Origin: an uncultured virus (IMG/VR IMGVR_UViG_3300032093_000023)
Taxonomy: Duplodnaviria; Heunggongvirae; Uroviricota; Caudoviricetes
Strand: one strand, 5' to 3'
Virus record (IMG/VR): IMGVR_UViG_3300032093_000023
DNA length: 64,000 nucleotides
Under the pieces are notes generated by a model, which did no database searches, was not told the DNA's origin, and saw nothing but the letters and a program-made list of their open reading frames with translations. Both the position numbers and the translations under genes were made by a program. Positions 18,010 to 51,882 of this stretch are shown here, one piece after another (the stretch's first letter is position 1; every line of letters starts with the position of its first letter).

Positions 18010-18014
18010 AATAA

Positions 18015-18108: not shown

Positions 18109-18138
18109 CATTATATGTTTTTTGTATAATTATTTTAG

Positions 18139-23061: not shown

Positions 23062-23062
23062 A

Positions 23063-24932: not shown

Positions 24933-24934
24933 AA

Positions 24935-25709: not shown

Positions 25710-25712
25710 AAT

Positions 25713-28850: not shown

Positions 28851-28902
28851 TTATTTTTTTAATTAATTTACAAATATATTAATTTATTATATCACTTTTA
28901 AC

Positions 28903-29166: not shown

Positions 29167-29198
29167 TTTTTATTATTTATTTTAAAGGATATTTTTGA

Positions 29199-30734: not shown

Positions 30735-30768
30735 TTTATTTTTTAATTTTTAAAGCAGAAAAGTTGTA

Positions 30769-31017
30769 TTATTTTTCTTTACCAACTATCTCTGCTACTG
30801 TTATTTCTCTAACGTGAACAGGCTTTTTATCAATGTATTGAAAAATATCACATCTAAAATTAAAATCTCCGTCTATTGGCTTAATCATAATGAAAAAATC
30901 ACCAAAAGGCTTATTTAATTCTGTTGCTACTTTTTCTAAGGTATCTTGAATCGTATCTTTTGTGATACTTTCTTTATCCATACCCCCCATTAAACCACCT
31001 AATAAATCTCCTAACAT
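30769..31017 (-). CDS. Hypothetical protein
   Basis: 82-aa ORF in the operon with an A-rich leader. Confidence 0.6.
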   Translation of the reverse strand: MLGDLLGGLMGGMDKESITKDTIQDTLEKVATELNKPFGDFFIMIKPIDGDFNFRCDIFQYIDKKPVHVREITVAEIVGKEK

Positions 31018-31051
31018 ACTATTTTTTTTTAATTGTTTATAATTTGCTAAG

Positions 31052-31582
31052 TTAGCATTTATTTTCGTTACTTGTACTTTTATTTTCAGATTTATTTGAC
31101 ATTAAATCTTTAATACTTGTAACGTACTCGTAAGGAATGTTAAACGTAAATATATATAATTTAACTTTTAATTTGCATTTAACTTTTAGTATAACTTTTT
31201 CTGGACTAAATACAAAGTTTTGAGCCAACGTTCCCACAGTTCCTAATAATTTACTAGGATTAAACAATACGTTAACTGATAATTCAGAAATTGATTTAGG
31301 TGATATAACTTGTAATTTAGGATTAGATACTTGAGCTATTTCCTTGTCATTTAAGTATGCTACATAATCTTGAGAAATAATTTCAATTTTTAAATCGCTA
31401 TTATTTTTAAAGTTAAGAAACAAATTAAAATCTGCTTTATTTAAACTTAGACTATTTATTTTAACGTTTTTAATAGATATACAATAGTTCATTAATTTTT
31501 TGTACTGTAAATATATGGCAGCACCAGTAATTGTTACTAATGCTATTACTCCTGCTATATAGTGTTTTTTTTCTAATTTCAT
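31052..31582 (-). CDS. LEA_2/WHy-like domain membrane protein
   Basis: N-terminal TM, then beta strands with FKNNSDLKIEI...YLNDKEIA...ISPKSISEL. Confidence 0.65.
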   Translation of the reverse strand: MKLEKKHYIAGVIALVTITGAAIYLQYKKLMNYCISIKNVKINSLSLNKADFNLFLNFKNNSDLKIEIISQDYVAYLNDKEIAQVSNPKLQVISPKSISELSVNVLFNPSKLLGTVGTLAQNFVFSPEKVILKVKCKLKVKLYIFTFNIPYEYVTSIKDLMSNKSENKSTSNENKC

Positions 31583-31583
31583 G

Positions 31584-31694
31584 TTACTGATTGTATTTTT
31601 TTTTTAGTAATTTATATGAATAGTATTGTAAAGCAATTCCACCAATTAACACTAATGTCATGCAAACAAGTAATTGTTTTTCTGATTTATCCAT
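31584..31694 (-). CDS. 36-aa single-TM peptide
   Basis: Hand-translated MDKSEKQLLVCMTLVLIGGIALQYYSYKLLKKKYNQ; fills the intergenic gap with a TAATG overlap. Confidence 0.7.
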   Translation of the reverse strand: MDKSEKQLLVCMTLVLIGGIALQYYSYKLLKKKYNQ

Positions 31695-32158
31695 TATTTT
31701 GCCTTTTTATTTCTTAAAATTAAAAATGTAACAATTCCAGCTATTAATAACACTCCTGCTCCAATACCAACATACAAACCTGTTTTAGATTTAGGTTTTT
31801 CTGTTTGAGAGCCTGATTTTAAAGCTTCTGCCATTGCTAAATCTGCTGGGTCTGTTTTACCTAATTGACCTGCTGCAATTTTTTGAGAGTCTGCTTGTGT
31901 CATTTTAGCCGAAGTTCTTTGTTCTCTAGCAACTGCTTTTGATGCAGCTTGAACATCACGTCTGTTTTGACGCTGTTTTTGAACTGCTCTTCTATGCTTA
32001 AAATATCTTTTTAATCCTCCTGCTTCTGAAAATTCAGCATCAAAAGAACTAGAGCTTTCGTTTTCTGCATCAAAAAAAGAGCTTGGGTCTTCTTCAATTA
32101 CGTTGTATTGAGTTGTTGGGTTTTGGTTACTTCTTTGAGTTATTAAATCTACTTTCAT
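31694..32158 (-). CDS. Tail-anchored membrane protein with acidic leader and basic segment
   Basis: SSFDAEFSEAGG, then an Arg/Lys-rich helix; C-terminal TM followed by RNKKAK. Confidence 0.75.
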   Translation of the reverse strand: MKVDLITQRSNQNPTTQYNVIEEDPSSFFDAENESSSSFDAEFSEAGGLKRYFKHRRAVQKQRQNRRDVQAASKAVAREQRTSAKMTQADSQKIAAGQLGKTDPADLAMAEALKSGSQTEKPKSKTGLYVGIGAGVLLIAGIVTFLILRNKKAK

Positions 32159-32159
32159 T

Positions 32160-32867
32160 TTATTTGTTTTTAATTATTAGTTTATATCCGACATAAGCTG
32201 TTAATGCTATTGCTATTGTTAATGCAGCTACCTTATAGGGATTTTTTTTTACTACCTCTTTGGCTGATATTGCTGCATTTTCTATTGACTTTCCTATTAA
32301 TGTATAAGAATATGTTTTTAAAGCATCTAACCTATTTAACCAACCCTTTGTATATACAGGTTGATTTAATCCTATAAGAAATTGTTTTTTTTGTTCGGTT
32401 AATTCATCAAATAATTGCTTCTCTCCTAATTTATCTGTCAAGTTATTTAAGTGAACATAAAGACCTTTTAAATCTGAAATATTCCAATCAATTCCTTTTG
32501 ATTTTAAATAATTTTTAATTCTATTTCTCCATCCGTAACCGCTTCCCCATTGCCAAGAAAACATTAAATTAGCTACTGCTTGACTTTTTACGTTATCTAA
32601 GTTTATTATATCCCAATAACCGTTTTTAGCAATTTTTAACCAAATATCTTCTGGCATTGTTAAAAAGTTAGTAGCATTATCTTGATAACCTAACTTTGGG
32701 GCTAATGATTTAAAAGCTGCATAAGTAACACCTTTATTTGTATGCCATCCTTTAACCCCTTTATATTCATAAGGGCTTGGATTTTTAGATGCGCTATCTG
32801 TTGTAGCTCTACTTAATCCACCCTCCCATTTGTAAGTAAATGGTATTATTTCTTTTATGTTTGCCAT
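32160..32867 (-). CDS. GH108-family lysozyme with C-terminal membrane anchor
   Basis: KWEGG, TNKGVT, GYW, WGSG and KGWLNR motifs; C-terminal TM VAALTIAIALTAYVGY. Confidence 0.8.
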   Translation of the reverse strand: MANIKEIIPFTYKWEGGLSRATTDSASKNPSPYEYKGVKGWHTNKGVTYAAFKSLAPKLGYQDNATNFLTMPEDIWLKIAKNGYWDIINLDNVKSQAVANLMFSWQWGSGYGWRNRIKNYLKSKGIDWNISDLKGLYVHLNNLTDKLGEKQLFDELTEQKKQFLIGLNQPVYTKGWLNRLDALKTYSYTLIGKSIENAAISAKEVVKKNPYKVAALTIAIALTAYVGYKLIIKNK

Positions 32868-33553
32868 TACGCTAAAATATTTAAGTTACTACTAAGTGTT
32901 TTATAAAATTTACCTTGTGAGCCGCTAAACGTAACCCAATAACCGCTTGTTGTTGGTGTAATTTTAGCTACTTTACCTAAAGCCATGATTTTTGTTACAG
33001 GTGCAATTTTTGTAAATACATTATCAGCTACATTTCCATCAAATATATCTGCTCCTGCATATTTAGAATAAACTACTTTACCAATAGGATTACCATTTGA
33101 TTTTATATAAGCGTTTAAATCTTGCATTTTAACGTTAACTACTTTCTCATATTCTAAACCGTATTTATTCCATGCCAAAGTTGTATTTTTACCGTAAATT
33201 CCATCTTCTACTAAAGAAGCACCTTTTATTTTATTAGCCCATTTTTGAAAGCTTAATGTATCTTTTGGTTGGCTTTTAATAACGTGTAATGGATTTGTAT
33301 TTGTAGAAATAGTTTGTTCCACTTTTGGCGAACTTAATCCTTTTGATGGGTCAGAAGAACTTGGAGTATTTGAATTTTCAGAAACAGACTCTCCACTAGG
33401 TAAGCCTAATTCTTTTTTCTTTTTATCATGCAAATACCAAATATAAATACCGATACCTGCTGCTACTAATAATGATACACCAATGATTAAACCTTTTTTA
33501 GATTTAGGTGATACAATTACTCGCTTATAATTTTTTATTACTGTTACTGCCAT
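32867..33553 (-). CDS. Membrane protein with peptidoglycan-binding-like domain
   Basis: N-terminal TM, Ser/Pro linker and FQKWAN...LVEDGIYGKNTTLAW. Confidence 0.65.
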   Translation of the reverse strand: MAVTVIKNYKRVIVSPKSKKGLIIGVSLLVAAGIGIYIWYLHDKKKKELGLPSGESVSENSNTPSSSDPSKGLSSPKVEQTISTNTNPLHVIKSQPKDTLSFQKWANKIKGASLVEDGIYGKNTTLAWNKYGLEYEKVVNVKMQDLNAYIKSNGNPIGKVVYSKYAGADIFDGNVADNVFTKIAPVTKIMALGKVAKITPTTSGYWVTFSGSQGKFYKTLSSNLNILA

Positions 33554-33557
33554 GTCG

Positions 33558-33767
33558 TTATTTTACTAATGATGCTGTTGGTATTCCTTTTTTTGCTTTT
33601 AAATATGATTCTAAATTAGCTCCACTTAAACTACCAACCACCATAAATGGAATGACAGTTAATTGTTTTTCGTATCCTAATTTTTTAGCTAATAAATATC
33701 CTGCGGCAATACCTAAAGCTGTGCCGATTAAATTATTCTTATATGTTGTTGTTAATTTATCTATCAT
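33558..33767 (-). CDS. Small two-TM glycine-zipper protein
   Basis: LIGTALGIAAG...VVGSLSG. Confidence 0.7.
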   Translation of the reverse strand: MIDKLTTTYKNNLIGTALGIAAGYLLAKKLGYEKQLTVIPFMVVGSLSGANLESYLKAKKGIPTASLVK

Positions 33768-33768
33768 T

Positions 33769-34392
33769 TTATTTAGTTTTTAATTGTTTTTCTAATGTGT
33801 TCCAAATTTTAGCTTGTTCAGATATTACTACGTCATAATTTGGTAAATCTTGCAAAAGTCCCATTACGGCATTCCATCCATTACCTGCTCCTTTATACAA
33901 AACTTCCTCTCCTTCAATATCTTTCCAAAGGTCTTTTTTGTACAAAGATTTATATATAGAATTAACTAATATAAAAGCACCATTCGTTCCTATTCTTCTG
34001 AAATTTCTATCAAACTTAATTTTATCAGTTCCAACTCTATTTATAGCAGAGTACAATTCATTTGCAATATTTACAGCTATATCAATAGCGGATTTACGTT
34101 GTGTAGCATTTCCTAAATTGTACCATTTACCATCTAGGGCAACTAATGAAACTTTGTATTGTTTTAAACTATCTAAATTTAAACTACTAGCGTTTTTAGC
34201 AACATCTACATTTATATTAGATAATTCATTTTGCGCTCCAACTGTATTTTCTTTTACCAATCCATTAATATATTCTAATATTAAAGCACTATTACGCTTA
34301 TTAACGTGTCGTTTATATATTAAATAACCAATACCACCAGCGGCTACCAATAAACTTACTCCTAAAACTATTTTTTTATTTTTTGTTGTCAT
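33769..34392 (-). CDS. Membrane-anchored annexin-repeat-like protein
   Basis: N-terminal TM; ANELYSAINRVGTD...IYKSLYKKDLWKDIEGE resembles the annexin repeat. Confidence 0.6.
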   Translation of the reverse strand: MTTKNKKIVLGVSLLVAAGGIGYLIYKRHVNKRNSALILEYINGLVKENTVGAQNELSNINVDVAKNASSLNLDSLKQYKVSLVALDGKWYNLGNATQRKSAIDIAVNIANELYSAINRVGTDKIKFDRNFRRIGTNGAFILVNSIYKSLYKKDLWKDIEGEEVLYKGAGNGWNAVMGLLQDLPNYDVVISEQAKIWNTLEKQLKTK

Positions 34393-34393
34393 T

Positions 34394-34840
34394 TTATTTT
34401 CCTCCCATCATTTTTAAAGCTCTACCTTGTGGCGTTGCGTACATTAAATTACTTGGTTTTTTAATCACACTATAAATGGCAGCTCCTACAGCTACTAATA
34501 CAACTCCACCAACAACAAATGTAACAATTTTACCAGCCTTAAATATTCCGCTAATTGTATCTGTTATTCCTCCACCTAAATCTACAGCTTTATCAATAAG
34601 TCCTTCTGCTAAATCAACATTATATTTGTCTTTCATGTAGCTTCTTAGTTGTAAAGTACGAGCAGTAGATGTACCACGTTTACCCCAAAGACTTAAAAAC
34701 ATTGATACTGATGTAGCTCTGTCAAAGTCTTTATCTAAGGCTTTCATCCAATTAATCCATTCAATATCCACACTTTTTAAAGTTGGTAATAATTGAAATG
34801 CTTTTGTTTTTTTTATTTTTTCTAAGTTTTCTGTTGTCAT
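34394..34840 (-). CDS. Membrane protein, C-proximal TM
   Basis: IVTFVVGGVVLVAVGAAIY followed by KK. Confidence 0.7.
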   Translation of the reverse strand: MTTENLEKIKKTKAFQLLPTLKSVDIEWINWMKALDKDFDRATSVSMFLSLWGKRGTSTARTLQLRSYMKDKYNVDLAEGLIDKAVDLGGGITDTISGIFKAGKIVTFVVGGVVLVAVGAAIYSVIKKPSNLMYATPQGRALKMMGGK

Positions 34841-34852
34841 ATTATTTTTTTT

Positions 34853-35911
34853 TTAATTTATAAATCCAGTTAATCCTTCTAAGTTTATATAAAATCCGCC
34901 TAATGAATTTATATCATGCGCATTAACCGAGAATGGATTGTTTAATCCTGCATTTGGTATTGTAAAAGGGCTATCATCATTACTGTCAATATAATTATTT
35001 ACATTAACTCCTGATGTTGCCCTGCTAATTAATAACGCTAATGGGTCATTTCCGAATTTTGGACTATTATTAAATCCACCAACCTCTTCATTATAAGGAG
35101 AGAAAACACATAATGCACCTTTTCCAAGACCAAAAGAACTATTTAAAAAAGTCGATTCAGAGCTAATTCTCAACTGTACAAATGACCTATAAAGAACTAA
35201 AGGACTACCTGTACCTGCATTATACCTCCTTGTTGCAATTACATTTGAAAAAACTATATCTCTCGAAATAGGCGTTGCATTTATAGGAAAATTCCTTGAT
35301 GTAGTTGGATTTGGCGTTAAAAATATACCTTGCCTTCCACCTGTAATTCCACCAAAACTACTATCCCCATTTGAGTTAGTAACAATAGATATATTATTTC
35401 CACTCGTGTCTAATGCTGCTGATGTTAATCCTAAATAACTATTTCCATAAGTAATAAAGTTAGGAGATGCGCTTCCGTCTAATGGTATAAATAAAGTGCC
35501 TCTTAAAGATATTCTATTTCCATCAATTGAATATTGTGGCATAATTCCAGCCGAATTAGCAGCGGCATAGTTATAGTAAGACAAGTTTTGTATATCATTC
35601 CATGTAGTATCACCGTTATAAGTTCCGACTAATATAAGAAATTTATTTGATGGTAAATCGTACATCAATTGATACCATCCATTTGATAATAACTGCCCAA
35701 TATTTAATGCAGAACCATCATTTCTGCAAATAACACCAGCTCCTATTGAATTTAAGTTTAAAGTTGGCGTTGTTGTTGTATTTGTAGAGGGAAATTTAAC
35801 TAAATATATACCATTATTAGAATATTGGTCATATAAAACATCTAATACGCCAATGTACGAATCATTTACATTAGTTAAAATACTTTTTCCTTTTATAATA
35901 TTATTATTCAT
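34853..35911 (-). CDS. Fibre/receptor-binding-like protein
   Basis: Fibre-type N-terminal module (PTLNLNSIGA...GQLLSNGWYQLMYD); beta-rich. Confidence 0.55.
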   Translation of the reverse strand: MNNNIIKGKSILTNVNDSYIGVLDVLYDQYSNNGIYLVKFPSTNTTTTPTLNLNSIGAGVICRNDGSALNIGQLLSNGWYQLMYDLPSNKFLILVGTYNGDTTWNDIQNLSYYNYAAANSAGIMPQYSIDGNRISLRGTLFIPLDGSASPNFITYGNSYLGLTSAALDTSGNNISIVTNSNGDSSFGGITGGRQGIFLTPNPTTSRNFPINATPISRDIVFSNVIATRRYNAGTGSPLVLYRSFVQLRISSESTFLNSSFGLGKGALCVFSPYNEEVGGFNNSPKFGNDPLALLISRATSGVNVNNYIDSNDDSPFTIPNAGLNNPFSVNAHDINSLGGFYINLEGLTGFIN

Positions 35912-35912
35912 T

Positions 35913-37184
35913 TTAGTAAGGTAATGTAGGGTCTATTTGCAATGTGTTTATATATGTATTTAATGTTCCATTTTCTAATGTAGGAGTATTTGCAATATTA
36001 GAATGTATATAATAAACAGATAAATTACATCCAGTGAAAACCTCAATACTGCTTCCGTTTTGAGAATATATAGTTGTATTATATAATTTTAAAATACCAT
36101 TTTGACTTAATGACGTTCTTCCACTTGTAATAGCTGAATTACACGCTATTTCTCCATTGTCTATTTTAGTCCTTACTTGACAATTATTTAATATTAATGT
36201 TTGCGAAACAGTAGTTGCAAAATCTATAGTAGGACTTAATCCTCCTAAATATGTATCTATATTAGCACCAAAAACCTCTAAAATACATCTTGATTCGCCC
36301 TCACTAGCCGCCATATTAATAGCATTATGAAATGCCTGTAATGTTGATTTTGCCTGTATATTATTGCATATTATTTTACAATAACCACCAGTTATAGCGA
36401 TAGTATCATTAATTGAATTACTTATTAAGTCACAATTTATAAGAATGTTATTGTTTGATTTATTGATAATAATAGCTTGTCCAAAAGCTCCTCCATAATT
36501 AGTTCTTTCTATTTTAGAAGACCCATATATTATATTATGCCATAAACCATCGCTAATTGATTCAAAACTAACGTTATTATCAGAAATACATCCATTTATA
36601 ATACTATTACCTAAGTATAAATCAATATATTGTTTTAAATTAATATCTTCTTCATAATATCCATCCTCAACTATTACCTGACATCTTTCATTTTCTGTTC
36701 TTGTAGAATAATATGTATCTAATGCTGAAATCGCAGCGTTTATAGTTAAAAATGGAGCGTCAAATCGTTCTACTAATCCAGTTGAATCGTTACCGTTTTT
36801 CATTACATAAGCAGTATTTTTAACAGTAATAGGAACACTTATAATGCTAGGAGAAACAAAAGAAGCTGAATAATCTAAATTACTACTAACAACAACATAA
36901 GCACTTATTGAATTTTGATTTAAAATAATACTTTGTTGGTTATTTATTTTAAATCCTGTTGGTGCAACTATTGTAATATTATTTGTAGCACAATTACCGC
37001 TTAAATCTTTAATATAAAGTGTATATAATGTACTCCAATAATCGGCAGGAATTTCCTGTAAATTAATAGTACAAGCAATGGAAGATGTATCGACATTTAA
37101 CAAAACATCGCTATTACTTACCATAACGTTTCCGCTAACCGTACGTTCATTATTCCTATATTTTGTACTTGGTAAAACTCCCAT
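35913..37184 (-). CDS. Spike with beta-helix (pectate-lyase-like) C-terminal region
   Basis: N-domain paralogous to 29199-30734; AYVMKNGNDSTG...PFLTINAAI then Ile/Asn/Cys-rich repeats. Confidence 0.6.
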   Translation of the reverse strand: MGVLPSTKYRNNERTVSGNVMVSNSDVLLNVDTSSIACTINLQEIPADYWSTLYTLYIKDLSGNCATNNITIVAPTGFKINNQQSIILNQNSISAYVVVSSNLDYSASFVSPSIISVPITVKNTAYVMKNGNDSTGLVERFDAPFLTINAAISALDTYYSTRTENERCQVIVEDGYYEEDINLKQYIDLYLGNSIINGCISDNNVSFESISDGLWHNIIYGSSKIERTNYGGAFGQAIIINKSNNNILINCDLISNSINDTIAITGGYCKIICNNIQAKSTLQAFHNAINMAASEGESRCILEVFGANIDTYLGGLSPTIDFATTVSQTLILNNCQVRTKIDNGEIACNSAITSGRTSLSQNGILKLYNTTIYSQNGSSIEVFTGCNLSVYYIHSNIANTPTLENGTLNTYINTLQIDPTLPY

Positions 37185-38296
37185 TAGAATATCATTTTAT
37201 TATCTCTTAATTCTTTATAAAAATACTTTTTCAACATTTTTTGTTCATAGTAAAAAGCTATAGAAACAGTACAGCCAGCTAAAATAGTGTATCTTAAAAT
37301 ATCCATCCCATCAGGAACGTAAGGTCTATTTAATTCCCTTTCAAAATTAAAAGCAATTATATTGCTTTGAAATTGAAATTTATCCAATAACTGTGGGATA
37401 TTAATTGGTGATGTATATGTAAATGCTCTTAAATCTTTTTGAGTTATCCCAAAATTAATATCCCTTTGAGCAAACAATATATTATTATTTGGAGCTGTAA
37501 TTGTAACTCTTGAATTAATAATTTTAGTTGGATTACTCATCATGTGAGATAAAACATCTGTATATTGTACACCGTCAACACCTTGCCCTGCTACCGAAAT
37601 TTTATCATTTATATTTTGACTTGTTGCTTGGTAATAATCTAAAGGAGTGCTAGGGTTAAATAACTCTACTGTATAATCTATATCGCTATTATTATTTATG
37701 ATAAATACTAATTCCTTTAATTTTTTACCATTGCAATATCCTATGTTTTTTAAATCAGTTTCTCCACAATCAGCATTACCTAAAATGAATTTATTAACCC
37801 CTTGAATAATAACATCCCTATCTCTAGGTATAATTACATTACTTAAAGGATTTTTAGCTTTACTGTGAATAGTTGCCTTATCTTTTACGCCCCACTCTTT
37901 ATGTAGCTTTAAAGAATTAATTATTTTCTTTTTAGGCGTCCTTTTGTTTTGATTTACAGAATTTTTATTTTGCTTACTCTCAAAAAAGTTTTGGTTTTGT
38001 TTTCGAGAATCGCCCTCAACGATTACGCTTCTATTACTTGGAACAATAACTTTATTTATACGTTCTTCATTTTTAGAGTGTTGTCTGTTTAAGCTTTTCA
38101 AAGAACTTTTAAAATCTCCAGTTAAATTACTGAAATCAATCCCTTCTAATTCATCAATAATTATAGTGCCTTCGCTTCTCTCTCCTTCTTTTTCATCAGG
38201 ATAATCACTTTCGTAATAATCGTCAAAATCGTAATAATAGGAGTCGTCTTCTGCAAAAACGCCATTAATATCGTCTATTATTTCTTCCTCGTTCAT
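37184..38296 (-). CDS. Minor/second capsid protein candidate, paralogue of 43546-44286
   Basis: C-terminal ~160 aa aligns by eye with the 246-aa protein (SPxN...LDxxQFQ...DG...LxxTxxA...IxxY); acidic N-terminus. Confidence 0.55.
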   Translation of the reverse strand: MNEEEIIDDINGVFAEDDSYYYDFDDYYESDYPDEKEGERSEGTIIIDELEGIDFSNLTGDFKSSLKSLNRQHSKNEERINKVIVPSNRSVIVEGDSRKQNQNFFESKQNKNSVNQNKRTPKKKIINSLKLHKEWGVKDKATIHSKAKNPLSNVIIPRDRDVIIQGVNKFILGNADCGETDLKNIGYCNGKKLKELVFIINNNSDIDYTVELFNPSTPLDYYQATSQNINDKISVAGQGVDGVQYTDVLSHMMSNPTKIINSRVTITAPNNNILFAQRDINFGITQKDLRAFTYTSPINIPQLLDKFQFQSNIIAFNFERELNRPYVPDGMDILRYTILAGCTVSIAFYYEQKMLKKYFYKELRDNKMIF

Positions 38297-38313
38297 AATT
38301 CACAAATATAGTT

Positions 38314-39102
38314 TTATATAAGCTTTTTAGCAAACTCTTCGTTACAAAACTTATCAATATAATCAACAATTTTACGCATACGTTGAATGTTACTGTCTGT
38401 TTGTGCTTTTAAGAAAACGTTAGCAAATACATGAATTGCATCAATTTTACTAAAACCTAATCCTAAATAAATATACAAAGCGTTAATATCAGCTCCAATT
38501 TCATTTGAAATCTCTAATCCCATTGTAGGATTTTTATACTTATGAGAAAATTCATGTAATAAAATAATCATTCTCATAGGTATAGTATATCTATCGAAAT
38601 TCCTTTTACTAACCTCTATAATACCTGTATTGTGACCTATACGAGCTGGTGTATTTAATACAGTTCCACTCATATAGTCTTTAATTACAGGAAAGTATTT
38701 AATTTTAAAATCCTTGTTTTTACTTGCAATCAATTTACCTTTTGGGTCTGCATTTGTAAAACCACAAGTCTGGCTAAACGTTAAAGCTAATTGAACAAAA
38801 TCTCTAGTTTCAGCGTCTGGCCAAACATTGTAAGTGGTTAATGGTTTTTCTTCGATTGTTACATCGAAATCTGTAAAACTTCTGTCATTTAAGTCTTGTA
38901 CTCCAATAATTATTTGACGTGGACTTACAGGAAAGCTAAAAAAAATAGTTCTTTTTCCATCTACTTCAATAGTTCTGTCGGAATATTTACTGTTTACTTT
39001 ATTGTAATCAGAAGAAGCAACCCTAAAAGTTCTTTTACCTTTACAAGTAATTGTTATATCTAATGCTAATTTTCTATTATCGGTATCCCAAACTTTGAAC
39101 AT
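38314..39102 (-). CDS. Zincin metalloprotease (HEXXH...ExxAD)
   Basis: IILLHEFSH (HEFSH at 38542-38556) followed by NEIGADINA, the gluzincin third-ligand motif. Confidence 0.75.
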   Translation of the reverse strand: MFKVWDTDNRKLALDITITCKGKRTFRVASSDYNKVNSKYSDRTIEVDGKRTIFFSFPVSPRQIIIGVQDLNDRSFTDFDVTIEEKPLTTYNVWPDAETRDFVQLALTFSQTCGFTNADPKGKLIASKNKDFKIKYFPVIKDYMSGTVLNTPARIGHNTGIIEVSKRNFDRYTIPMRMIILLHEFSHKYKNPTMGLEISNEIGADINALYIYLGLGFSKIDAIHVFANVFLKAQTDSNIQRMRKIVDYIDKFCNEEFAKKLI

Positions 39103-39124
39103 ATTGTTGTTTTTGTCTTTTTAA

Positions 39125-39229
39125 TTATTTTTTTACTTCTACAGCTTTTTTAGCTTTCATTTTTTTGTACAATAAGTATGCTGCAACTGCTGCACCAATA
39201 CCTAAAACAATTTTCACTTCTTTTGTCAT
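39125..39229 (-). CDS. 34-aa single-TM peptide
   Basis: Hand-translated MTKEVKIVLGIGAAVAAYLLYKKMKAKKAVEVKK; leader AAACAAATACAATG. Confidence 0.75.
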   Translation of the reverse strand: MTKEVKIVLGIGAAVAAYLLYKKMKAKKAVEVKK

Positions 39230-39270
39230 TGTATTTGTTTTTTGTTGTTATGTGCCAATATTGGCGGTTG

Positions 39271-39945
39271 TTATTTTTTATTTTTAGTTGCTATAACTAT
39301 GAATGTAATTAATAAACCTGCTGTTAAAGCTCCTAGTGCTATTTTAACAGGTGTACTCATTGTAGATTTTTTGTCTGTTTCAGTATAAACGGGTTCATCG
39401 CTTGGCAATCCAGAACCATAAGAACCTTCTTGTGTAGTTTGTTGACTTGTACTACCAAATATTCCTCCAAATAAATTATTTAAGATATTACCTCCAATAG
39501 ACGTTAATTTTCCTTTAAATTCTGGATGAGAATTTAACCAATCAGACGCTTTAATCCAAGTTCCTTTTGTTTTATCCCACAACATTCCTTTTTTCTTTTC
39601 GCCTTTTGGAGAAGTTTCTGAAACAGTATTTGGAAGAGGTGGAGTGCTTACAGCAGGGTTTAAAGTTGAAGCGAATTTCTTTCTTGCGTTAAAAAATTCA
39701 GCACCATAGTTAGACCAAGCTATTGATGTTTGTTTGCCAAATGGATAGCGTCCGTAACCTTCTCCTTTATTTAATTTACTCCCATTATTCCAAGTTGGAT
39801 ATTTAACATCTAACCAATCTTGAAAAGTTTTAGTTTCTTTAGAGTTTTCAGGTTTACCCGTTCCGTCAAACCCACTACAACCACAGGCGTTTGAGTAGTC
39901 TGAAACGTTACCATAAATTACCTTTCTTTTTGTCACTATGTCCAT
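39271..39945 (-). CDS. Tail-anchored membrane protein, possible peptidoglycan-binding-like domain
   Basis: YSNACGCSGFDG; FQDWLD...FGKQTSIAW resembles the 32867 protein; C-terminal TM followed by KNKK. Confidence 0.7.
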   Translation of the reverse strand: MDIVTKRKVIYGNVSDYSNACGCSGFDGTGKPENSKETKTFQDWLDVKYPTWNNGSKLNKGEGYGRYPFGKQTSIAWSNYGAEFFNARKKFASTLNPAVSTPPLPNTVSETSPKGEKKKGMLWDKTKGTWIKASDWLNSHPEFKGKLTSIGGNILNNLFGGIFGSTSQQTTQEGSYGSGLPSDEPVYTETDKKSTMSTPVKIALGALTAGLLITFIVIATKNKK

Positions 39946-39946
39946 C

Positions 39947-40462
39947 TTATTTTGTTTTAACGATTTTAATTCCTGTCTTAATATTTTTTCTGTGAGTGTA
40001 ATATGCTCCTAATAAACCGCCTACTAATAACCCAATTAATTTATTTTGGTGCGGTATTTTAGCATCTTCTTGCTCTTTTACCCACCCTTTTTTTTCTGCG
40101 TACCAAACAATAGCAACTCCTATAACTCCACCAATAATAGCCGAATCAATGAATCTTACTTTGTTCGTCTCTTTGCCTAATATTTTATTTTCAACTTGCT
40201 TTTTAATTAAATCGGTTTCGCCATCTGCATTACTAATCATTTCTTTTGTAACTAATTCTTTTACAGCCGAAATAGGAACTACAACAGCCCTCTTATGTAT
40301 AATATAATCAGGGTCTCCGTTTTCTTTAACTTTTAAAGTGCCGCTAATTACTTGTCCTTTTTTAAAAAAAGCGTATTTTACTTGTGAACGCAACTTAGGG
40401 TGTGAACCTCCGCTATAAACTACAGGACTTTTAAAAGATTTTACTACAATATATTTAGCCAT
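39947..40462 (-). CDS. Two-TM membrane protein with soluble beta N-domain
   Basis: ISNADG linker, then IIGGVIG and LIGLLVGGLLG helices. Confidence 0.7.
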   Translation of the reverse strand: MAKYIVVKSFKSPVVYSGGSHPKLRSQVKYAFFKKGQVISGTLKVKENGDPDYIIHKRAVVVPISAVKELVTKEMISNADGETDLIKKQVENKILGKETNKVRFIDSAIIGGVIGVAIVWYAEKKGWVKEQEDAKIPHQNKLIGLLVGGLLGAYYTHRKNIKTGIKIVKTK

Positions 40463-40463
40463 C

Positions 40464-40580
40464 TTATTTACCTTTAATTGTTATTTTATTTTTTTCAGCC
40501 TTAAATTTTTTATATTGGTCATAAGCTAAAATCCCAAATCCAATTAATGCTATTGCTCCGATTATTTTCTTCAAGTCCAT
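40464..40580 (-). CDS. 38-aa single-TM peptide
   Basis: Hand-translated MDLKKIIGAIALIGFGILAYDQYKKFKAEKNKITIKGK; fills the gap exactly. Confidence 0.75.
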   Translation of the reverse strand: MDLKKIIGAIALIGFGILAYDQYKKFKAEKNKITIKGK

Positions 40581-40581
40581 G

Positions 40582-40878
40582 TTATTTATTTTTATTCATT
40601 TTATAAATTACAAATCCAATTATAGATAAAGCAATTACTGAACCTCCTATAATTAAACCTACTTTAAGACCTTTACTCATCCCTTTTGGCTTTGGAGGTA
40701 ATGGAATAGGTGCTGATTGTTGTTGTATAGGTTCTGCTTGTTGCTTATTTGTTAAATTACCCACAAATCCCTTAACTTTACCACTACCAACTAATCCTTT
40801 TGCTTTATTTAAAATGTTATTAAAATCAAAGTTAGAATAGTCGTCTATTATTGGTTTATTTACTGATATAATTTGCAT
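40582..40878 (-). CDS. Tail-anchored membrane protein
   Basis: YSNFD motif, Pro-rich linker, C-terminal TM followed by KMNKNK. Confidence 0.7.
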   Translation of the reverse strand: MQIISVNKPIIDDYSNFDFNNILNKAKGLVGSGKVKGFVGNLTNKQQAEPIQQQSAPIPLPPKPKGMSKGLKVGLIIGGSVIALSIIGFVIYKMNKNK

Positions 40879-41568
40879 TTAGTTTCTTTTTTTTATTGCG
40901 TAAATAACTCCTCCTATTAATGCTAATCCTAACAAACTAGCTACTGAAATTAAAATAATTCGTTTTGTTTTACTAGACGCTTCGATTTTCTTTTGTGCCT
41001 CTATTTGTTGTGATTGCCTTTGCGCTAATATCGTTTGAACCATTTGTTGTTTAGCTTCTGCTTTTTTTGCAAATGTATCGGTTGCTCCAAACTTTTTAGC
41101 TCTTTGATTATCTGCTAATTTTCCTCCTAAACCCGCTAATCCTCCAACAGCACCAGCTATTGCTGTTCCCCAAACATTTGAATGTTCTTCGTCATCACTT
41201 ACAAAATTATCGTAAATATCAGCGTCAAAATAATTATATAAAACTTTATGAGTCGCCTTTAATCCATCTTCGTTATGCTCTTCTTCACCATTAAATGAAG
41301 CTGTTTTATTATTATGGCTTATTAAAAATGCAGCACCTAACAATAGTTTTTTGTTATTATGAATATTATCTAAAAATAAATCAACCAATTCTGCATCAGT
41401 CATTTCATTACTAGCAATTACATTAGCACTATTTAACATGAAAATAAAATCTTCTCGTTTAGAAACTAATAAACTCGCCAACTCTTCCATAACAACACGA
41501 TTTGCTTTTGACAAATCATGTTGTTTTAAGTAAGAAGATAATTCTTTATAATATTCTTTTTTTTCCAT
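40879..41568 (-). CDS. Tail-anchored membrane protein with internal Gly-rich hydrophobic segment
   Basis: HSNVWG directly followed by TAIAGAVGGLAGLGG, a coiled coil and a C-terminal TM. Confidence 0.7.
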   Translation of the reverse strand: MEKKEYYKELSSYLKQHDLSKANRVVMEELASLLVSKREDFIFMLNSANVIASNEMTDAELVDLFLDNIHNNKKLLLGAAFLISHNNKTASFNGEEEHNEDGLKATHKVLYNYFDADIYDNFVSDDEEHSNVWGTAIAGAVGGLAGLGGKLADNQRAKKFGATDTFAKKAEAKQQMVQTILAQRQSQQIEAQKKIEASSKTKRIILISVASLLGLALIGGVIYAIKKRN

Positions 41569-41576
41569 TTCTGGTT

Positions 41577-42479
41577 TTATTTAAAAACTTTTGCTTTATG
41601 TAAAGCGAAAATAATAACTGCTGCCGCTCCTAATCCAACAATAACTCCTTTGTTTTTTGCAAAGAAAGTTTTACCGTCAAATGAACTCATTTCGTCACCT
41701 TCCATCATACTAGAATCTTCTCCATCAGCTCCCTTTGCAGGAATAACTATTTTATTATCTCCAATAGTAGCGTTTAATCCTGATTGAACAGGAGTTAATG
41801 ATTTCATTCTAACGACAGCTTTAGCGTGAACTTCTTTCATTTTATCCAAATGGTTAACTCTTGCCTTTAATTCTTTTGCTGCTTTAGCAACCATATTAGA
41901 AGGTAATTTACCGCTTCTTAAAGCATCTTTTAGTTTGTTAACAGCACCCTCATGTTTAGCTATTTTATCTTTCATAATACCTAATCTGTTTTTAATTCTT
42001 TTACCAGAGGCATCAGACATTTCAGCATCAAATGAACTTGTTTCTCCTGACGTTTCAGCGTCAAATGAACTTTCTTCATCTGAATATTCACTATTATCCC
42101 CTAAAGGTTCTTGTGCTTCTTCATTATACGATTGTTCGTCTTGAGATGGCTCATTATACGATTGTTCCATTGGTTGTTGTTCTATTGGTTGTTCTTGTGA
42201 CATATCGTTAGATTCATTTTCGCTTTCAGGGTCATCTCCCATTCTTTTTCTAGCTTCTTTACGACTAGCTCTAATATCTTTACGAGTTTGACGAGCTTCT
42301 TGTTTAGCTGCAAGTCTTTCGGTTCTATTAGCAATTCGTGTCATTCTTCTTTTTTGTCTACGAACTTGTCTTCTAGCCCTTCCTCTTCCCTTTAATTCCG
42401 AATGCTCTCCAAACGCTTCCTCAAAAGAAACTCCTTGAATTTCTGTTTCAGGTTCTAATGTTATGATTCTAGCTTCCAT
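41577..42479 (-). CDS. Tail-anchored protein with alternating Arg-rich and acidic blocks
   Basis: HSELKG then RGRARRQ...; SSFDAE repeats; MSDASG then a basic helix; C-terminal TM. Confidence 0.75.
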   Translation of the reverse strand: MEARIITLEPETEIQGVSFEEAFGEHSELKGRGRARRQVRRQKRRMTRIANRTERLAAKQEARQTRKDIRASRKEARKRMGDDPESENESNDMSQEQPIEQQPMEQSYNEPSQDEQSYNEEAQEPLGDNSEYSDEESSFDAETSGETSSFDAEMSDASGKRIKNRLGIMKDKIAKHEGAVNKLKDALRSGKLPSNMVAKAAKELKARVNHLDKMKEVHAKAVVRMKSLTPVQSGLNATIGDNKIVIPAKGADGEDSSMMEGDEMSSFDGKTFFAKNKGVIVGLGAAAVIIFALHKAKVFK

Positions 42480-42487
42480 GTTTTAAA

Positions 42488-42955
42488 TTATTTAATAGTT
42501 ACTTTTTTGTTTTTTGTAACAGTTTTCCCAGCTACAAATCCTAAACCTGCTCCAATCAAAGTGTACATTAATTTCTTTTTGTAATCTTCTTTTTTGTATG
42601 TAGCATAGCCAAATCCTGCTGTTGCTCCTAACGCTAATCCAATTAAAGCATTTCTATCTTTTAATTGTGCTGGAATGTCAATGATTTTAGCCTTTGCATT
42701 TGCGCCATCTGCGCCTAATTTAACTTCTGTTGTTTCCATGTTTATTGGTTTTATTTTGTTTGTATATATTATTTCGTTGTTTGTAGTGTAAAAAAGCCTA
42801 TATTGGAACGTCTCACCTTTTCTTAAACCATTTACTAATTTAACGTCTCCAATTAATTCAGTACCTTTTGGTATAATAATATCTGTAGCTGTAAAGTTTT
42901 TATGTTCAGCGTTTGGTATTAATACTTTTGCATCTTCTATTGTAACTACTTTCAT
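42488..42955 (-). CDS. Two-TM membrane protein, architecture like 39947-40462
   Basis: Beta N-domain, LGADG linker, two Gly-zipper helices and a KKVTIK end. Confidence 0.7.
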   Translation of the reverse strand: MKVVTIEDAKVLIPNAEHKNFTATDIIIPKGTELIGDVKLVNGLRKGETFQYRLFYTTNNEIIYTNKIKPINMETTEVKLGADGANAKAKIIDIPAQLKDRNALIGLALGATAGFGYATYKKEDYKKKLMYTLIGAGLGFVAGKTVTKNKKVTIK

Positions 42956-42959
42956 AAAA

Positions 42960-43466
42960 TTAATGCTTATGGTGCATGAAAATTCCTAAAATTGCTACAA
43001 TGCCAATTACACTTAATGCAACTGTTACCGTATTATTACTTACAGATTGTTGTGGTTGACCAAATGATTCGGCATATCCACTAAATGACGATTTATTACA
43101 ACCGCAATTAGGGTTACCAGCACAATTTGAAAACTCTCCCGATTCACTTATATATTTTTTTAAGATGTCTTTTACACTATCCTCTGTCATGTCAATTTTA
43201 TGTTTTGTTTCTACAGATAATTCCTGTGGTTCTTTAACTGTATATTTTAAGATAAATTCTTTGTGCGGATGTATTTCGCAAAACTCTTTATCCATTAATT
43301 TCTTATCATCACTAGCCTTGTAAAGATTAGCTAATTTTAATTCTAAGTCTTTGTGATTTTTAGCGTCTGGTTGATTGTATTTTTTTAACAATCCCCTTGA
43401 CTTATCAGTTGATTCATTTGCTAATAAAGATAGCAACCCGTATATTTTCTTTTTTTGAGCTTCCAT
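42960..43466 (-). CDS. Tail-anchored membrane protein
   Basis: IHPHKEFIL, FSNCAGNPNCGC and a C-terminal TM. Confidence 0.7.
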   Translation of the reverse strand: MEAQKKKIYGLLSLLANESTDKSRGLLKKYNQPDAKNHKDLELKLANLYKASDDKKLMDKEFCEIHPHKEFILKYTVKEPQELSVETKHKIDMTEDSVKDILKKYISESGEFSNCAGNPNCGCNKSSFSGYAESFGQPQQSVSNNTVTVALSVIGIVAILGIFMHHKH

Positions 43467-43489
43467 TATAGCGTAATGTTTATTTTATT

Positions 43490-43525
43490 AAAAAAGCCCA
43501 CCAACTTTTATGGTGGTGGGCTTTT
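43490..43525 (-). terminator. Intrinsic terminator after the capsid candidate
   Basis: aaaagcccacca...tggtgggctttt perfect 12-bp inverted repeat, followed by a U-run on the minus strand. Confidence 0.85.
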
Positions 43526-43545
43526 AATTTTAGTGTTTATTAAGA

Positions 43546-44286
43546 CTATCCTTTAGAGATACTTTTAACAGCACTAGAAGTGTTAATAATTACTGGTGAT
43601 ACGTTTTTACCTGATAATGGACGAGCGTAAGCTTTGTTTAAAGCATTACCACCGTTTAATACTGCTTTACCAGAGATGATTGAAGTAGGGTATAAAGAGA
43701 TTACAAAAGTAGCAGAAGCTTTTAATGTAAATGATAACTCTGTATTACCATCAATCACGATAGATTTAGTCGTATCAATTACAGACGCTTGGAATTGGTA
43801 AGAATCTAACATTACAGATAAGTTTAATGGACTAGATTTAACGTTACCATTCGCATCTGTGTGAGCGATAGAAATTGTTTGTTGTAATTGCGCTGGTGTA
43901 CTAGAAGCAAAACGTTGACGAGATATTTTAAATACCTTGCTTTGAGATTGTGCAAATAATTGAGCGTAAGTACCACCTTGTAAGTTGCTAATAACTACAG
44001 CAGCAGGGTTACCAAAGTTAGTAACACCAAAAGCATATTTGTTAAAACCAAACATTACAGCCGTAACGTCATTAGTAGTTGTGTTTGTGTATTGAATAAC
44101 GTATGGGTCAGCTTCAACACGAGCAGAAGGAGCGCCATCAGCATTGTTGTAATCAAATTCATCGCCATCAGCGTTATTAAAATCGTCAAAATATGATTCG
44201 CCTTCTGCTGAATCATAAGAGTCAAACCCTGAGAAACTTTCTGTTCCAGAGATATAATTGCGTAATTCTTTTTCTTTATTTGTCAT
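43546..44286 (-). CDS. Putative major capsid protein (single jelly-roll-like, with acidic propeptide)
   Basis: Highly-expressed-style codons (CGT, ATC, AAC, TAC, GCT), own terminator, ~150-aa beta-strand core, and an acidic leader ending FNNADG/YNNADG. Fold inferred. Confidence 0.55.
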   Translation of the reverse strand: MTNKEKELRNYISGTESFSGFDSYDSAEGESYFDDFNNADGDEFDYNNADGAPSARVEADPYVIQYTNTTTNDVTAVMFGFNKYAFGVTNFGNPAAVVISNLQGGTYAQLFAQSQSKVFKISRQRFASSTPAQLQQTISIAHTDANGNVKSSPLNLSVMLDSYQFQASVIDTTKSIVIDGNTELSFTLKASATFVISLYPTSIISGKAVLNGGNALNKAYARPLSGKNVSPVIINTSSAVKSISKG

Positions 44287-44431
44287 TTTGTTATTTTTTT
44301 TAATTGTTTGTTAATTTTTTGATTTAGTTTATTGTTTTATGCTTTGTTAGTTTTTTGTTTCTCACGTTAATTAAAACGGTTTTCATTCGCTCAAATTCCA
44401 CAAATAACATTAGTTAATAGGAAATAAAATG

Positions 44432-44458
44432 AAAGGGCGAAACAAAGTTTGCCCTTTT
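44432..44458 (-). terminator. Hairpin/attenuating terminator between the 41-aa gene and the capsid candidate
   Basis: aaagggcgaaac-aaa-gtttgccctttt inverted repeat; imperfect U-tract on the minus strand. Confidence 0.65.
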
Positions 44459-44461
44459 AAA

Positions 44462-44587
44462 TTACTTTACAGCAGGTTTCGCTAATTTAGCGATACGTGG
44501 TGCAACAACAGCTTGATGAACAGCTAAAGCAACCATTACAATTGCAAGAGTCATAGCACCTTTTTTTAAATTTTCAGTTGTAAACAT
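44462..44587 (-). CDS. 41-aa hydrophobic/basic peptide heading the structural operon
   Basis: Hand-translated MFTTENLKKGAMTLAIVMVALAVHQAVVAPRIAKLAKPAVK; TATTTTTG element about 40 bp upstream. Confidence 0.75.
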   Translation of the reverse strand: MFTTENLKKGAMTLAIVMVALAVHQAVVAPRIAKLAKPAVK

Positions 44588-44782
44588 TTTCTTTATTTTT
44601 TAGATGATTATTAATAATTGAACTCAAAAATATATAAGAAAAAAAACATTTAATAAATTATGAAGTAAACGTGTTTAGTTTTAAAGCGTATAATTATTAA
44701 TAAAATCAATACTTTAAGCTATGATACTTTTGTTTACTTTAATTTTGTTTTTTGATATTTTAAATTGTATTTTTGTGCTATT

Positions 44783-45514
44783 ATGAACAAATTACCTAAA
44801 ATATTAGTTAGTTGCCCAACGGCTAAGGCTAAGAATTACACGGCGTTAGAATGGATTGCTAATACTCAAAAATTCACATATCCTAATTGCGAAATTGTAG
44901 TATTTGATAATACAGATGATAATGGAGAAAATGCTGAATATCTTAATCAATTAGCTGTTGAAAATGGCTTTTTAAATTTTAAGGCTATTAAATCAGATAC
45001 AAATAACTGTAAAAGTTTAATTGAAAAGATGTGTGTATCTCATAACGATTGTAGGGGACTTGTTATTAATGGTGGTTACTCTCATTTATTACATTTAGAA
45101 AGTGATGTTATTTGCCCTACTGATACTATTGAAAATTTATACTTACATAAAAAGCAAGTTGCTGGAGGTTTATTTTACAGAGATAGTGGAATAAGTCGTA
45201 AATTAATGGCACAAAGACGTATTTATAGAAGTCCTAGAAATATTATAAGCGAAAACTTTTTACCGAGTGAGGATATACATTTTATTGACGGCACACTAAA
45301 AACGGCTGCTCATATAGGTTTAGGCTGTATTTTAATTAATGTAGAAACTTTAAAAAAGATTAAATTTAGATTTGTAGAAAATGTAGATATGCACCCCGAT
45401 ACATATTTTGCAGAGGATTGTTTTAGAAATAACATTAAGATATTTGCAGATACTAATATAATTTGCAAACATAATAATGAAGATTGGGGAGTTTACGGTT
45501 ATACTTGGAAATAA
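44783..45514 (+). CDS. Glycosyltransferase family 2-like (GT-A)
   Basis: KILVSCPT, VVFDN, HLESDV, IGLGCILI, PDTYFAED and CKH motifs. ATG at 44783 preferred, downstream of TATTTTTG (44768-44775). Confidence 0.75.
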   Translation: MNKLPKILVSCPTAKAKNYTALEWIANTQKFTYPNCEIVVFDNTDDNGENAEYLNQLAVENGFLNFKAIKSDTNNCKSLIEKMCVSHNDCRGLVINGGYSHLLHLESDVICPTDTIENLYLHKKQVAGGLFYRDSGISRKLMAQRRIYRSPRNIISENFLPSEDIHFIDGTLKTAAHIGLGCILINVETLKKIKFRFVENVDMHPDTYFAEDCFRNNIKIFADTNIICKHNNEDWGVYGYTWK

Positions 45515-45532
45515 TATATAATATAAATAAAT

Positions 45533-45862: not shown

Positions 45863-45864
45863 GT

Positions 45865-47635: not shown

Positions 47636-47665
47636 ACTTTTATTTTTTTAAATTTATGTGCAATA

Positions 47666-48190: not shown

Positions 48191-48210
48191 TGTATTTGTT
48201 TTTAATATTA

Positions 48211-51881: not shown

Positions 51882-51882
51882 T

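Follow-up and report, generated by a model that had tools for sequence, protein, structure and literature searches.

The 64,000-nucleotide stretch of DNA from the uncultured virus IMGVR_UViG_3300032093_000023 (Caudoviricetes) that was analysed here, referred to at its full length as the window, has a G+C content of about 28% and carries almost all of its genes on the minus strand. The subject of this study is a gene cluster spanning positions 31694-44286 of the window, in which about nine unrelated small proteins have a short motif in common and which also encodes a candidate protease, a protein of 262 amino acids (aa) with a HExxH signature. Around 20 open reading frames (ORFs) are closely packed within 31052-44286, and comparison of the cluster ORFs with the Pfam and PHROG families gave almost no matches, the exceptions being a GH108 lysozyme domain (32160-32867) and weak LEA_2-type matches. 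The GenBank phage collection holds no DNA match to positions 31000-45000 and no tblastn match to the HExxH protein or to the 246-aa protein of the cluster, while a scan of viral contigs with single proteins yielded no more than a ThyX-containing locus that is unrelated (L001), the 246-aa protein giving no match. Searches of PDB sequences with the 490-, 262- and 370-aa proteins of the window gave no match, and no paper on this virus group was found in a literature search.

A motif common to unrelated neighbouring proteins

A preliminary description, made from the letters of the window, had pointed to a motif recurring in about ten neighbouring proteins. Every ORF and motif string that it listed was recovered from the minus strand of the window; the description had located the strings by the ends of their ORFs rather than by the motif sites, which are given in Table 1. 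The pattern [FYILMVWH]S[NED]xxG was counted 11 times in 18 cluster ORFs (4,039 aa) and 4 times in the 34 other ORFs (14,876 aa), and within-protein shuffling of the cluster gave a mean of 1.45 motifs (standard deviation 1.22), with none of 500 shuffles reaching 11. The strings [NG]ADG and SF[DN][AG] were each found 5 times in the cluster and 1 and 2 times, respectively, in the other ORFs. The enrichment over the rest of the contig and the presence of the motif in some nine unrelated small proteins are thus borne out, as is the hydrophobic first residue in most copies, although two copies begin with His, and YSNFD and SGFDG, which had also been named as instances, fall outside the pattern. Since the pattern was fixed after inspection of the data, the independent tests carry more weight than these counts.

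The first of these tests was made on 16 related viral contigs found by means of a profile of the HExxH protein, two of which (L005 and L008) were left out as near-duplicates of L004 and L007, resulting in 14 non-redundant contigs. Gene order is conserved among them, with the 246-, 168-, 155-, 229-, 171-, 262- and 370-aa families and the fibre-like family found in all 16 loci and the 300-aa family in 11 of the 16. The neighbours of the HExxH gene are only 25-45% identical between loci, and the position of the motif is still kept in orthologues with an identity of only about 35%. When an orthologue was counted as keeping a site if [SN]xxxG stands at the same place (the 224-aa and 98-aa families being outside this count), FSNLTG of the 370-aa family and ISNADG of the 171-aa family were each kept in 14/14 orthologues, HSELKG, the first site of the 300-aa family, in 10/10, and YNNADG, the last leader site of the 246-aa family, in 13/14. 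The two sites of the 168-aa family are kept in 9 and 10 of 14 orthologues, HSNVWG of the 229-aa family in 8 of 14 and FSEAGG of the 154-aa family in 3 of 5. Conservation in otherwise divergent homologues, which had been proposed as a check, is therefore found for the better sites but not for every string first listed: LGADG is weak, with [SN]xxxG in only 3/14 orthologues, and so are FNNADG (4/14) and MSDASG (2/10), while MSSFDG is kept in 0/10 in the positional alignment, a zero put down to an artefact of that alignment, but is matched in a second alignment by SNADG-like strings ahead of the anchor.

The 370-aa family gives the clearest picture, as D54, S56 and G60 are invariant in 15/15 sequences and are the sole invariant columns in an otherwise unalignable N-terminal third. 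In addition, 53 of 61 full-length representatives of this family, drawn from a library clustered at 50% identity, carry [DN][FY]SxxxG in their N-terminal region, five having no match at all and three a match only near the C-terminus. Motif counts in orthologues exceed those of shuffled sequences in the 168-aa (28 vs 3.5), 300-aa (44 vs 8.1), 229-aa (17 vs 5.4), 171-aa (15 vs 3.4) and 370-aa (16 vs 5.5) families, whereas no enrichment is seen in control families of these loci, namely the candidate protease itself (1 vs 3.1 in shuffles) and the families of the ORFs at 31052 (1 vs 1.3), 32160 (1 vs 1.7) and 34394 (0 vs 1.6). A 146-kb relative (G002) that was not drawn on when the motif was defined has 21 motifs in the module corresponding to the cluster (8,776 aa) and 20 in its other 215 ORFs (36,091 aa), which amounts to 2.39 vs 0.55 per 1000 aa, a 4.3-fold difference (Poisson p = 5e-8), and two of the best-looking matches outside the module sit in the downstream part of the same operon.

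From 201 instances the consensus reads acidic, acidic, F/Y/M (or K), S, N (or G/S/E/Y), A/F/V/I/L, x, G, or in a rough short form [DE]-[FYM]-S-[N/S/E]-[A/F/hydrophobic]-x-G. The 15 residues upstream of the motif have a mean net charge of -2.33, negative in 88 of 129 instances, and the residues downstream a mean of +1.21, positive in 65 and negative in 46 of the 129. The acidic leader that was said to end at the motif therefore stands as a tendency, but in several families a conserved folded domain occupies this place instead. The motif is thus real, common to unrelated neighbours, conserved and restricted to this module.

Table 1. Motif carriers, candidate protease and fibre-like protein of the cluster, with their positions in the window
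Feature	Position	Strand	Description
246-aa protein	43546..44286	-	Predicted N-terminal helix, disordered acidic leader, jelly-roll core (residues 60-205), conserved C-terminal tail
Motif copies, 246-aa protein	FNNADG 44164-44181; YNNADG 44134-44151	-	Within acidic leader
168-aa protein	42960..43466	-	Conserved N-terminal domain, Cys-rich variable stretch, C-terminal hydrophobic anchor
Motif sites, 168-aa protein	FSNCAG 43116-43133; KSSFSG 43077-43094	-	In Cys-rich variable stretch
155-aa protein	42488..42955	-	Conserved N-terminal beta-rich domain, variant LGADG, two Gly-rich hydrophobic stretches; doubtful carrier
300-aa protein	41577..42479	-	HSELKG, Arg-rich stretch, MSDASG, MSSFDG, then C-terminal anchor
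Motif sites, 300-aa protein	HSELKG 42387-42404; MSDASG 42003-42020; MSSFDG 41673-41690	-	HSELKG directly before Arg-rich stretch
229-aa protein	40879..41568	-	Conserved N-terminal domain, HSNVWG (41167-41184) directly before Gly-rich hydrophobic stretch, C-terminal anchor
98-aa protein	40582..40878	-	C-terminal anchor; YSNFD is a partial motif only
171-aa protein	39947..40462	-	N-terminal beta-rich domain, ISNADG (40220-40237), then hydrophobic stretches
224-aa protein	39271..39945	-	YSNACG (39880-39897) near N-terminus, C-terminal anchor
262-aa HExxH protein	38314..39102	-	Beta-sandwich (residues 1-89), compact zincin-like domain (about 97-262); candidate protease
HEFSH, residues 183-187	38542..38556	-	Presumed zinc-binding and catalytic motif; invariant alignment columns
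E201 in NEIGAD	38500-38502	-	Invariant column; presumed ligand
370-aa protein	37184..38296	-	Variable acidic leader, D-F-S-N-L-T-G, basic linker, jelly-roll-related C-terminal domain
Motif site, 370-aa protein	FSNLTG 38117-38134	-	Between acidic leader and basic linker
423-aa fibre-/spike-like protein	35913..37184	-	Conserved N-terminal part of about 105 aa, variable remainder; module member without motif
154-aa protein	31694..32158	-	Acidic N-terminal part, FSEAGG (32015-32032), basic stretch, C-terminal anchor

Among the carriers, the 246-aa protein has a model in which residues 14-58, comprising its motif copies, have a predicted local distance difference test score (pLDDT) below 50, and the jelly-roll core has block pLDDT values of 68-92 over residues 61-200. 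Its best rows in a structural comparison with VIA-align were phiCjT23 (Z 6.3), Sulfolobus turreted icosahedral virus (Z 6.2) and P31 of PR772 (Z 6.1), mixed with non-viral sandwiches, and chains of FLiP and PRD1 were also among them, all of these at Z of about 6 or less; a role as capsid protein is putative. The 370-aa protein was matched at E 1.1e-5 by a profile of homologues of a 255-aa paralogue, a set which included members of the 246-aa family. For the 171-aa protein the protein atlas offered only SH3-like leads with a template modelling (TM) score below 0.4, and orthologues of the 224-aa protein were found in 5 loci only.

In a simple hydropathy scan of 21 cluster ORFs, a hydrophobic anchor at the C-terminus followed by a Lys-rich tail was found in seven (31694-32158, 32160-32867, 39271-39945, 40582-40878, 40879-41568, 41577-42479 and 42960-43466), and five further ORFs have an N-terminal or internal hydrophobic stretch. 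The tails end, for example, in ...KNKK or ...RNKKAK, the seven proteins have no N-terminal signal sequence, and this tail-anchored design recurs across unrelated cluster proteins, the GH108 lysozyme among them.

The fibre-like protein of 423 aa, for which an N-terminal match was found in 16/16 loci, shares with the protein encoded at 29199-30734, and with those of contigs L002-L017, a common N-terminal part of about 100 aa followed by a C-terminal part that differs from contig to contig, a pattern typical of exchangeable receptor-binding modules.

The HExxH protein and possible functions of the motif

The HExxH gene lies within the cluster, as first described, and is present in 16/16 related contigs with the same neighbours, the membrane-protein genes being on one side and the 370-aa and fibre-like genes on the other. 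It is the best conserved gene of the cluster, with 55-62% identity compared with 25-45% for its neighbours. At least 1,414 homologues of the protein were found, mostly of about 262 aa among the matches listed, one of which lies on a contig of 235 kb. H183, E184, H187, E201 and D205 are invariant in 27/27 sequences of the family, and the HExxH is followed after 13 residues by the invariant Glu of N-E-x-G-A-D, a gluzincin-type arrangement. An AlphaFold model (pLDDT 91.1, predicted TM score 0.90) consists of a beta-sandwich followed by a helical domain, with E201 at the beginning of a helix (residues 201-214). The helical domain was aligned by VIA-align with 6sar_A (BepA, family M48; Z 7.4, root-mean-square deviation 4.9, 121 residues) and with 3c37_B, deposited as a putative Zn-dependent peptidase (Z 6.2, deviation 4.5, 115 residues), while Foldseek ranked the M60 domain of ZmpC first (E 5.3e-3) and gave no row that reached 1e-3. 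In the protein atlas metallopeptidase clusters came up as leads only, at scores below 0.9, and no Pfam or PHROG family matched at E <= 0.01 and no PDB sequence at E <= 10. The protein shares a short spacer between HExxH and Glu, here of 13 residues, with M48/M56-like minimal zincins and with M60-like enzymes, and with the latter also the succession of a beta-sandwich and a catalytic domain; it is, however, much smaller than M60 enzymes and, unlike M48 enzymes, has no membrane segments. Judging from its invariant residues and predicted fold, it is probably an active zincin-like metallopeptidase belonging to no described family.

The reading that we favour, at a probability of roughly 0.45, is that the motif is the recognition site by which this zincin processes the proteins of the module. 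In this proposal, otherwise unrelated proteins of one late gene module, namely two jelly-roll proteins together with six or more small proteins whose hydrophobic anchors are C-terminal or paired, would carry the same recognition site and would all be processed by a single virus-encoded compact zinc metallopeptidase. On the N-terminal side of the cut would lie an acidic leader or a soluble domain, and on its C-terminal side a part that is basic, Gly-hydrophobic, membrane-anchored or folded. Thermolysin-like gluzincins are expected to cut before a hydrophobic residue, and the scissile bond would be expected before one of the two hydrophobic positions of the motif. A link between the zincin and the motif is drawn from context, namely from the same gene order in 16 contigs, in which the zincin is the most conserved gene, and from leaders which hold multiple copies of the motif, as giant-phage propeptides do with their cleavage sites. 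Accessibility and location also speak for it: the motif regions are predicted to be disordered and therefore accessible, and a signal-peptide-like start is absent from the translations of every motif carrier and of the HExxH protein, so that both would meet in the cytoplasm. That the zincin is active, that it recognises and cleaves the motif at the bond proposed and that its substrates belong to the virion is what we infer from these observations and consider plausible.

A number of points weigh against processing by the zincin. The protease gene occurs together with the motif families in 16/16 related contigs, but among the genomes found there is none with the motif and without the protease, or the reverse, and this co-occurrence therefore lacks contrast. 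Cleavage at the motif, by the zincin or otherwise, is a proposal, and the carriers are putative virion proteins, a role for which the jelly-roll fold and the fibre-like neighbours are no more than suggestive. The 171-, 155-, 168- and 229-aa families have a conserved domain upstream of the motif and not a throw-away leader, so that the earlier claim of a protease stripping acidic propeptides retains the acidic tendency upstream but does not fit those families in which the upstream part is a conserved folded domain. The fold matches of the zincin are middling (Z 7.4 at a deviation of 4.9; Foldseek E 5e-3), no curated protease family matches it, and its targets could be others, for example proteins of the host envelope, on which M60/enhancin-type enzymes act. 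Prediction of a complex between the zincin, given as an alignment, and residues 38-80 of the 370-aa family gave scores of 0.00 and 0.01 against a mark of 0.32, which is no verdict either way, and a literature search found no zincin maturation protease in phages.

The conserved domains upstream of the motif in four families would be accommodated if the motif were not cut at all but were a short linear binding motif, an incorporation or assembly signal by which membrane and jelly-roll proteins are docked onto a common partner, so that only marked proteins enter the particle or assembly site. We regard this as a serious possibility, though less likely than processing. Like typical multivalent docking motifs, for which the acidic-aromatic appendage-binding motifs offer a comparison, the motif occupies disordered acidic-aromatic linkers and is often repeated within them, and in four families it stands between a conserved N-terminal domain and a membrane anchor, both halves looking functional. 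It is also confined to the module from the 246-aa gene downstream, being absent in G002 from the block of ATPase and paralogue genes described below. Docking, however, leaves a protein with an invariant HExxH and Glu in the same conserved gene order without a role, and for the partner it has candidates only: a jelly-roll shell protein, a scaffold or the beta-sandwich domain of the HExxH protein.

It is improbable that the conserved Ser (or Asn) serves as a site of post-translational modification, for instance glycosylation by glycosyltransferase-like genes of the module. Ser is indeed the most constant residue of the motif, a glycosyltransferase-like 244-aa ORF lies next to the ATPase gene in the module of the relatives (weak Glyco_transf_7C match, E 0.0054), and a separate plus-strand ORF of 249 aa (44765-45514), with matches in 11 of 32 loci searched, adjoins the cluster in the window; but these assignments are below curated cut-offs, the 249-aa ORF of the window has no Pfam match, some copies have Asn or Gly instead of Ser, and neither the invariant Gly four residues on nor the acidic-aromatic flank would be explained. 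Least credible of all is a functionless by-product of linkers rich in Ser, Asn, Gly and Asp combined with the post hoc choice of pattern. Such a choice was made, some of the instances first listed are not conserved, and the Gly/Ser/Asn-rich fibre family, in which the motif is not enriched, gives many chance matches (35 vs 25.3 in shuffles). Composition nevertheless does not account for a count which no shuffle reached, for the invariance of D, S and G where no other column is conserved, for the retention of the motif in the 53 distant representatives or for the repeated enrichment in G002, which had not been used for its definition.

Four further candidates were rejected. A sortase- or exosortase-type signal composed of motif, anchor and basic tail would require a fixed place, but no motif has one: anywhere from 0 to more than 80 residues separate it from the anchor. 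Many copies fit neither the Bacteroidetes O-glycosylation sequon D-[ST]-[AILVMT] nor the N-x-[ST] sequon. Asn-dependent self-cleavage, which occurs in noda- and tetraviruses, is contradicted by the replacement of Asn with S, E, G or Y in many conserved copies, and double-glycine bacteriocin leaders by the lack of both a C39 peptidase and the leader consensus.

Processing of the kind proposed has its nearest counterparts in the prohead proteases of T4-like and giant phages, which are serine proteases of the herpesvirus-assemblin type. According to excerpts of an account of SPN3US (PMC10052503), gp245 cuts after A-X-E at 14 sites in nine substrates, and giant-phage head proteins undergo multiple cuts inside long propeptides. 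As far as these excerpts go, T4 gp21, phiKZ gp175 and SPN3US gp245 resemble the system proposed here in that one virus protease acts at one short consensus on many unrelated structural or ejected proteins, and giant-phage propeptides resemble the leaders of the cluster in holding several motif copies each. The differences are that those enzymes are serine proteases with another consensus, whereas the candidate here is a compact HExxH zincin, that most of its candidate substrates are small and membrane-anchored, and that cleavage is proven there but only proposed here. The main text of the structural paper on ΦcrAss001 contains 'protease' and 'cleav' 0 times each.

A further comparison is provided by adenovirus protease, pS273R of African swine fever virus (ASFV) and vaccinia I7, cysteine proteases which act at Gly-containing consensus sites in core and membrane-lytic precursors, yielding basic DNA-binding and membrane-active products. 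These eukaryotic jelly-roll viruses possibly represent a related virion type, as jelly-roll proteins, internal membrane proteins and an FtsK/HerA-like ATPase are found in the relatives of the cluster, but their enzymes are without similarity to the zincin and have other consensus sequences.

Virion type of the relatives and composition of the window

The left part of the window is crAss-like, with a muzzle protein (E 1e-126), ring protein 1 (E 2.7e-44) and ring protein 2 (E 9e-38) encoded at 18139-24932, adjoining an ORF of 3,730 aa. None of the window proteins left of 25.7 kb, muzzle and rings included, has a tblastn match in G002. PF25731 was found in 0/5 records, but the positive controls were also silent. 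Pfam and PHROG scans of 57 of the 59 G002 ORFs of at least 200 aa, namely those inside a single fetched stretch, revealed no portal, HK97 capsid, tail tube or sheath family, and neither did a PHROG scan of 40 further representative ORFs from four more contigs; the only terminase-family match in those scans was that of the small P-loop ATPase described below (E 4e-6). Since all of the relatives' contigs are fragments, the missing tailed-phage genes are weak evidence.

What the relatives do have upstream of the 246-aa gene is, in all 16 contigs, a P-loop ATPase of 263-284 aa (25 of 32 loci), whose DUF87 (HerA/FtsK-type) matches at E 2e-4 to 1.3e-3 are below the curated cut-off, together with an acidic protein of 452 aa and a further two paralogues of the 246-aa protein. 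The relatives have four jelly-roll paralogues, and their membrane proteins are numerous. In G002 the block occupies L038:361-8543, and with the matching parts of L018-L033 it comprises the 452-aa acidic protein, the ATPase, the glycosyltransferase-like ORF and paralogues of 255 and 242 aa. Not one of these genes is present in the window, which has a plus-strand island (44765-46380) in their place.

The small FtsK/HerA-like ATPase beside jelly-roll paralogues, followed by many small membrane proteins, and the spike-/fibre-like gene and lysins of the relatives resemble the virion module of membrane-containing tailless phages of the PRD1/PM2/FLiP type. They differ from these in the far larger size of their genomes (146 kb, estimated to be 74% complete), and the window differs in that its module adjoins crAss-like tail genes; we know of no maturation protease in the PRD1/PM2/FLiP group. 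The relatives look like a different virion type from that encoded by the crAss-like genes on the left of the window, and the element carrying the cluster should not be taken for an ordinary prohead-building phage. Peptidoglycan hydrolases, a DnaB-type helicase and a clamp lead us to judge the host of the element to be bacterial.

All of this can be combined in one picture which, taken as a whole, we regard as unlikely though worth stating. The cluster would serve to build the particles of a widespread but so far unrecognised lineage of large viruses of bacteria, whose contigs reach at least 146 kb. These particles would combine several single jelly-roll proteins with an internal membrane crowded with tail-anchored proteins and a packaging ATPase of the FtsK/HerA type. 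Membrane and core proteins would be matured by the zinc metallopeptidase at the S-N-A-x-G-type motif, as a bacterial counterpart of adenovirus and ASFV maturation with a different enzyme class, the Lys-rich tails behind the anchors would face the packaged DNA, and in the window this module would have been joined to a crAss-like tail module.

At 28000-28400 the window passes from its crAss-like left part, which holds the muzzle, the rings and a 490-aa gene, to the right part bearing the cluster. Near-identical crAss-like contigs have ordinary head genes where the window has the cluster: L045 is 99-100% identical to 17059-28356 and then continues with ordinary crAss-type head genes including a 440-aa capsid-like protein, and contigs of runs X8 and X12 diverge from the window at 28242, where in run X8 the depth drops from about 44 to about 3-5. 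The join is nevertheless present in at least two further assemblies, as L044 (99.9% identical) covers 17024-31238 and a contig of run X7 covers 28015-31239 without a difference, although contigs from short reads are no proof of long-range linkage. A metagenome scan with the 176-aa protein gave two short loci, neither reaching the junction, and an exact-word scan right of the junction returned only L044. The window is therefore either a natural mosaic or a chimera or misassembly through a shared stretch. The finding on the motif is untouched by this, because the synteny of the cluster span is confirmed in 16 independent contigs.

Several other observations concern the distribution and the remaining genes of these elements. 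The stretch 21000-30000 is almost complete in runs labelled as freshwater or 'fungus' metagenome, and about half of it is found in some ten more freshwater or lake runs of several studies, which fits only one of the joined parts being widespread. A viral record of 49.6 kb (G001) is 100% identical to window 1-16965, where it ends inside a 756-aa ORF, and runs past the left edge of the window. At least 597 relatives of the endolysin-like 182-aa protein encoded at 25713-26261 (phrog_3000) are spread over viral contigs with very different gene contexts, among them both crAss-like contigs and cluster-bearing relatives. Four short consecutive minus-strand ORFs of 180, 174, 135 and 212 aa lie at 47093-49246, of which the 180-aa ORF, with homologues in 9 related loci, shows a weak match of terminase-nuclease type (E 0.0096). 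Very large ORFs at 1636-13700 and 49497-55686 contain domains of 'polyvalent' proteins, namely ART-PolyVal (a weak match) and LPD1, and one of them encodes a 1,267-aa protein with sliding-clamp domains. The relatives have Strawberry-notch-like helicase, SprT-like and LPD11 domains, and G002 has three copies of a phrog_506-type transposase (L040:332-1591, L041:5755-6870 and L037:1419-2657).

Implications

In conclusion, the observation of the motif is confirmed, and more strongly than the letters alone could reveal, its interpretation as a processing site is plausible, and the context is more unusual than was assumed in the preliminary description. More than 1,000 protein clusters of freshwater and marine metagenomic origin represent the virus group concerned. 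Should the motif be a site of processing, the mature ends of some nine orphan proteins could be predicted from one consensus, and a zinc metallopeptidase would join the short list of enzymes that mature virus particles, which to our knowledge has so far comprised serine proteases (tailed phages) and cysteine proteases (adenovirus, ASFV and poxviruses). If it is instead a signal for incorporation, it would give viral membrane proteins an address label of a rare, readable kind. The module surrounding it hints, in addition, at a virion type that is missed by current marker-gene searches.

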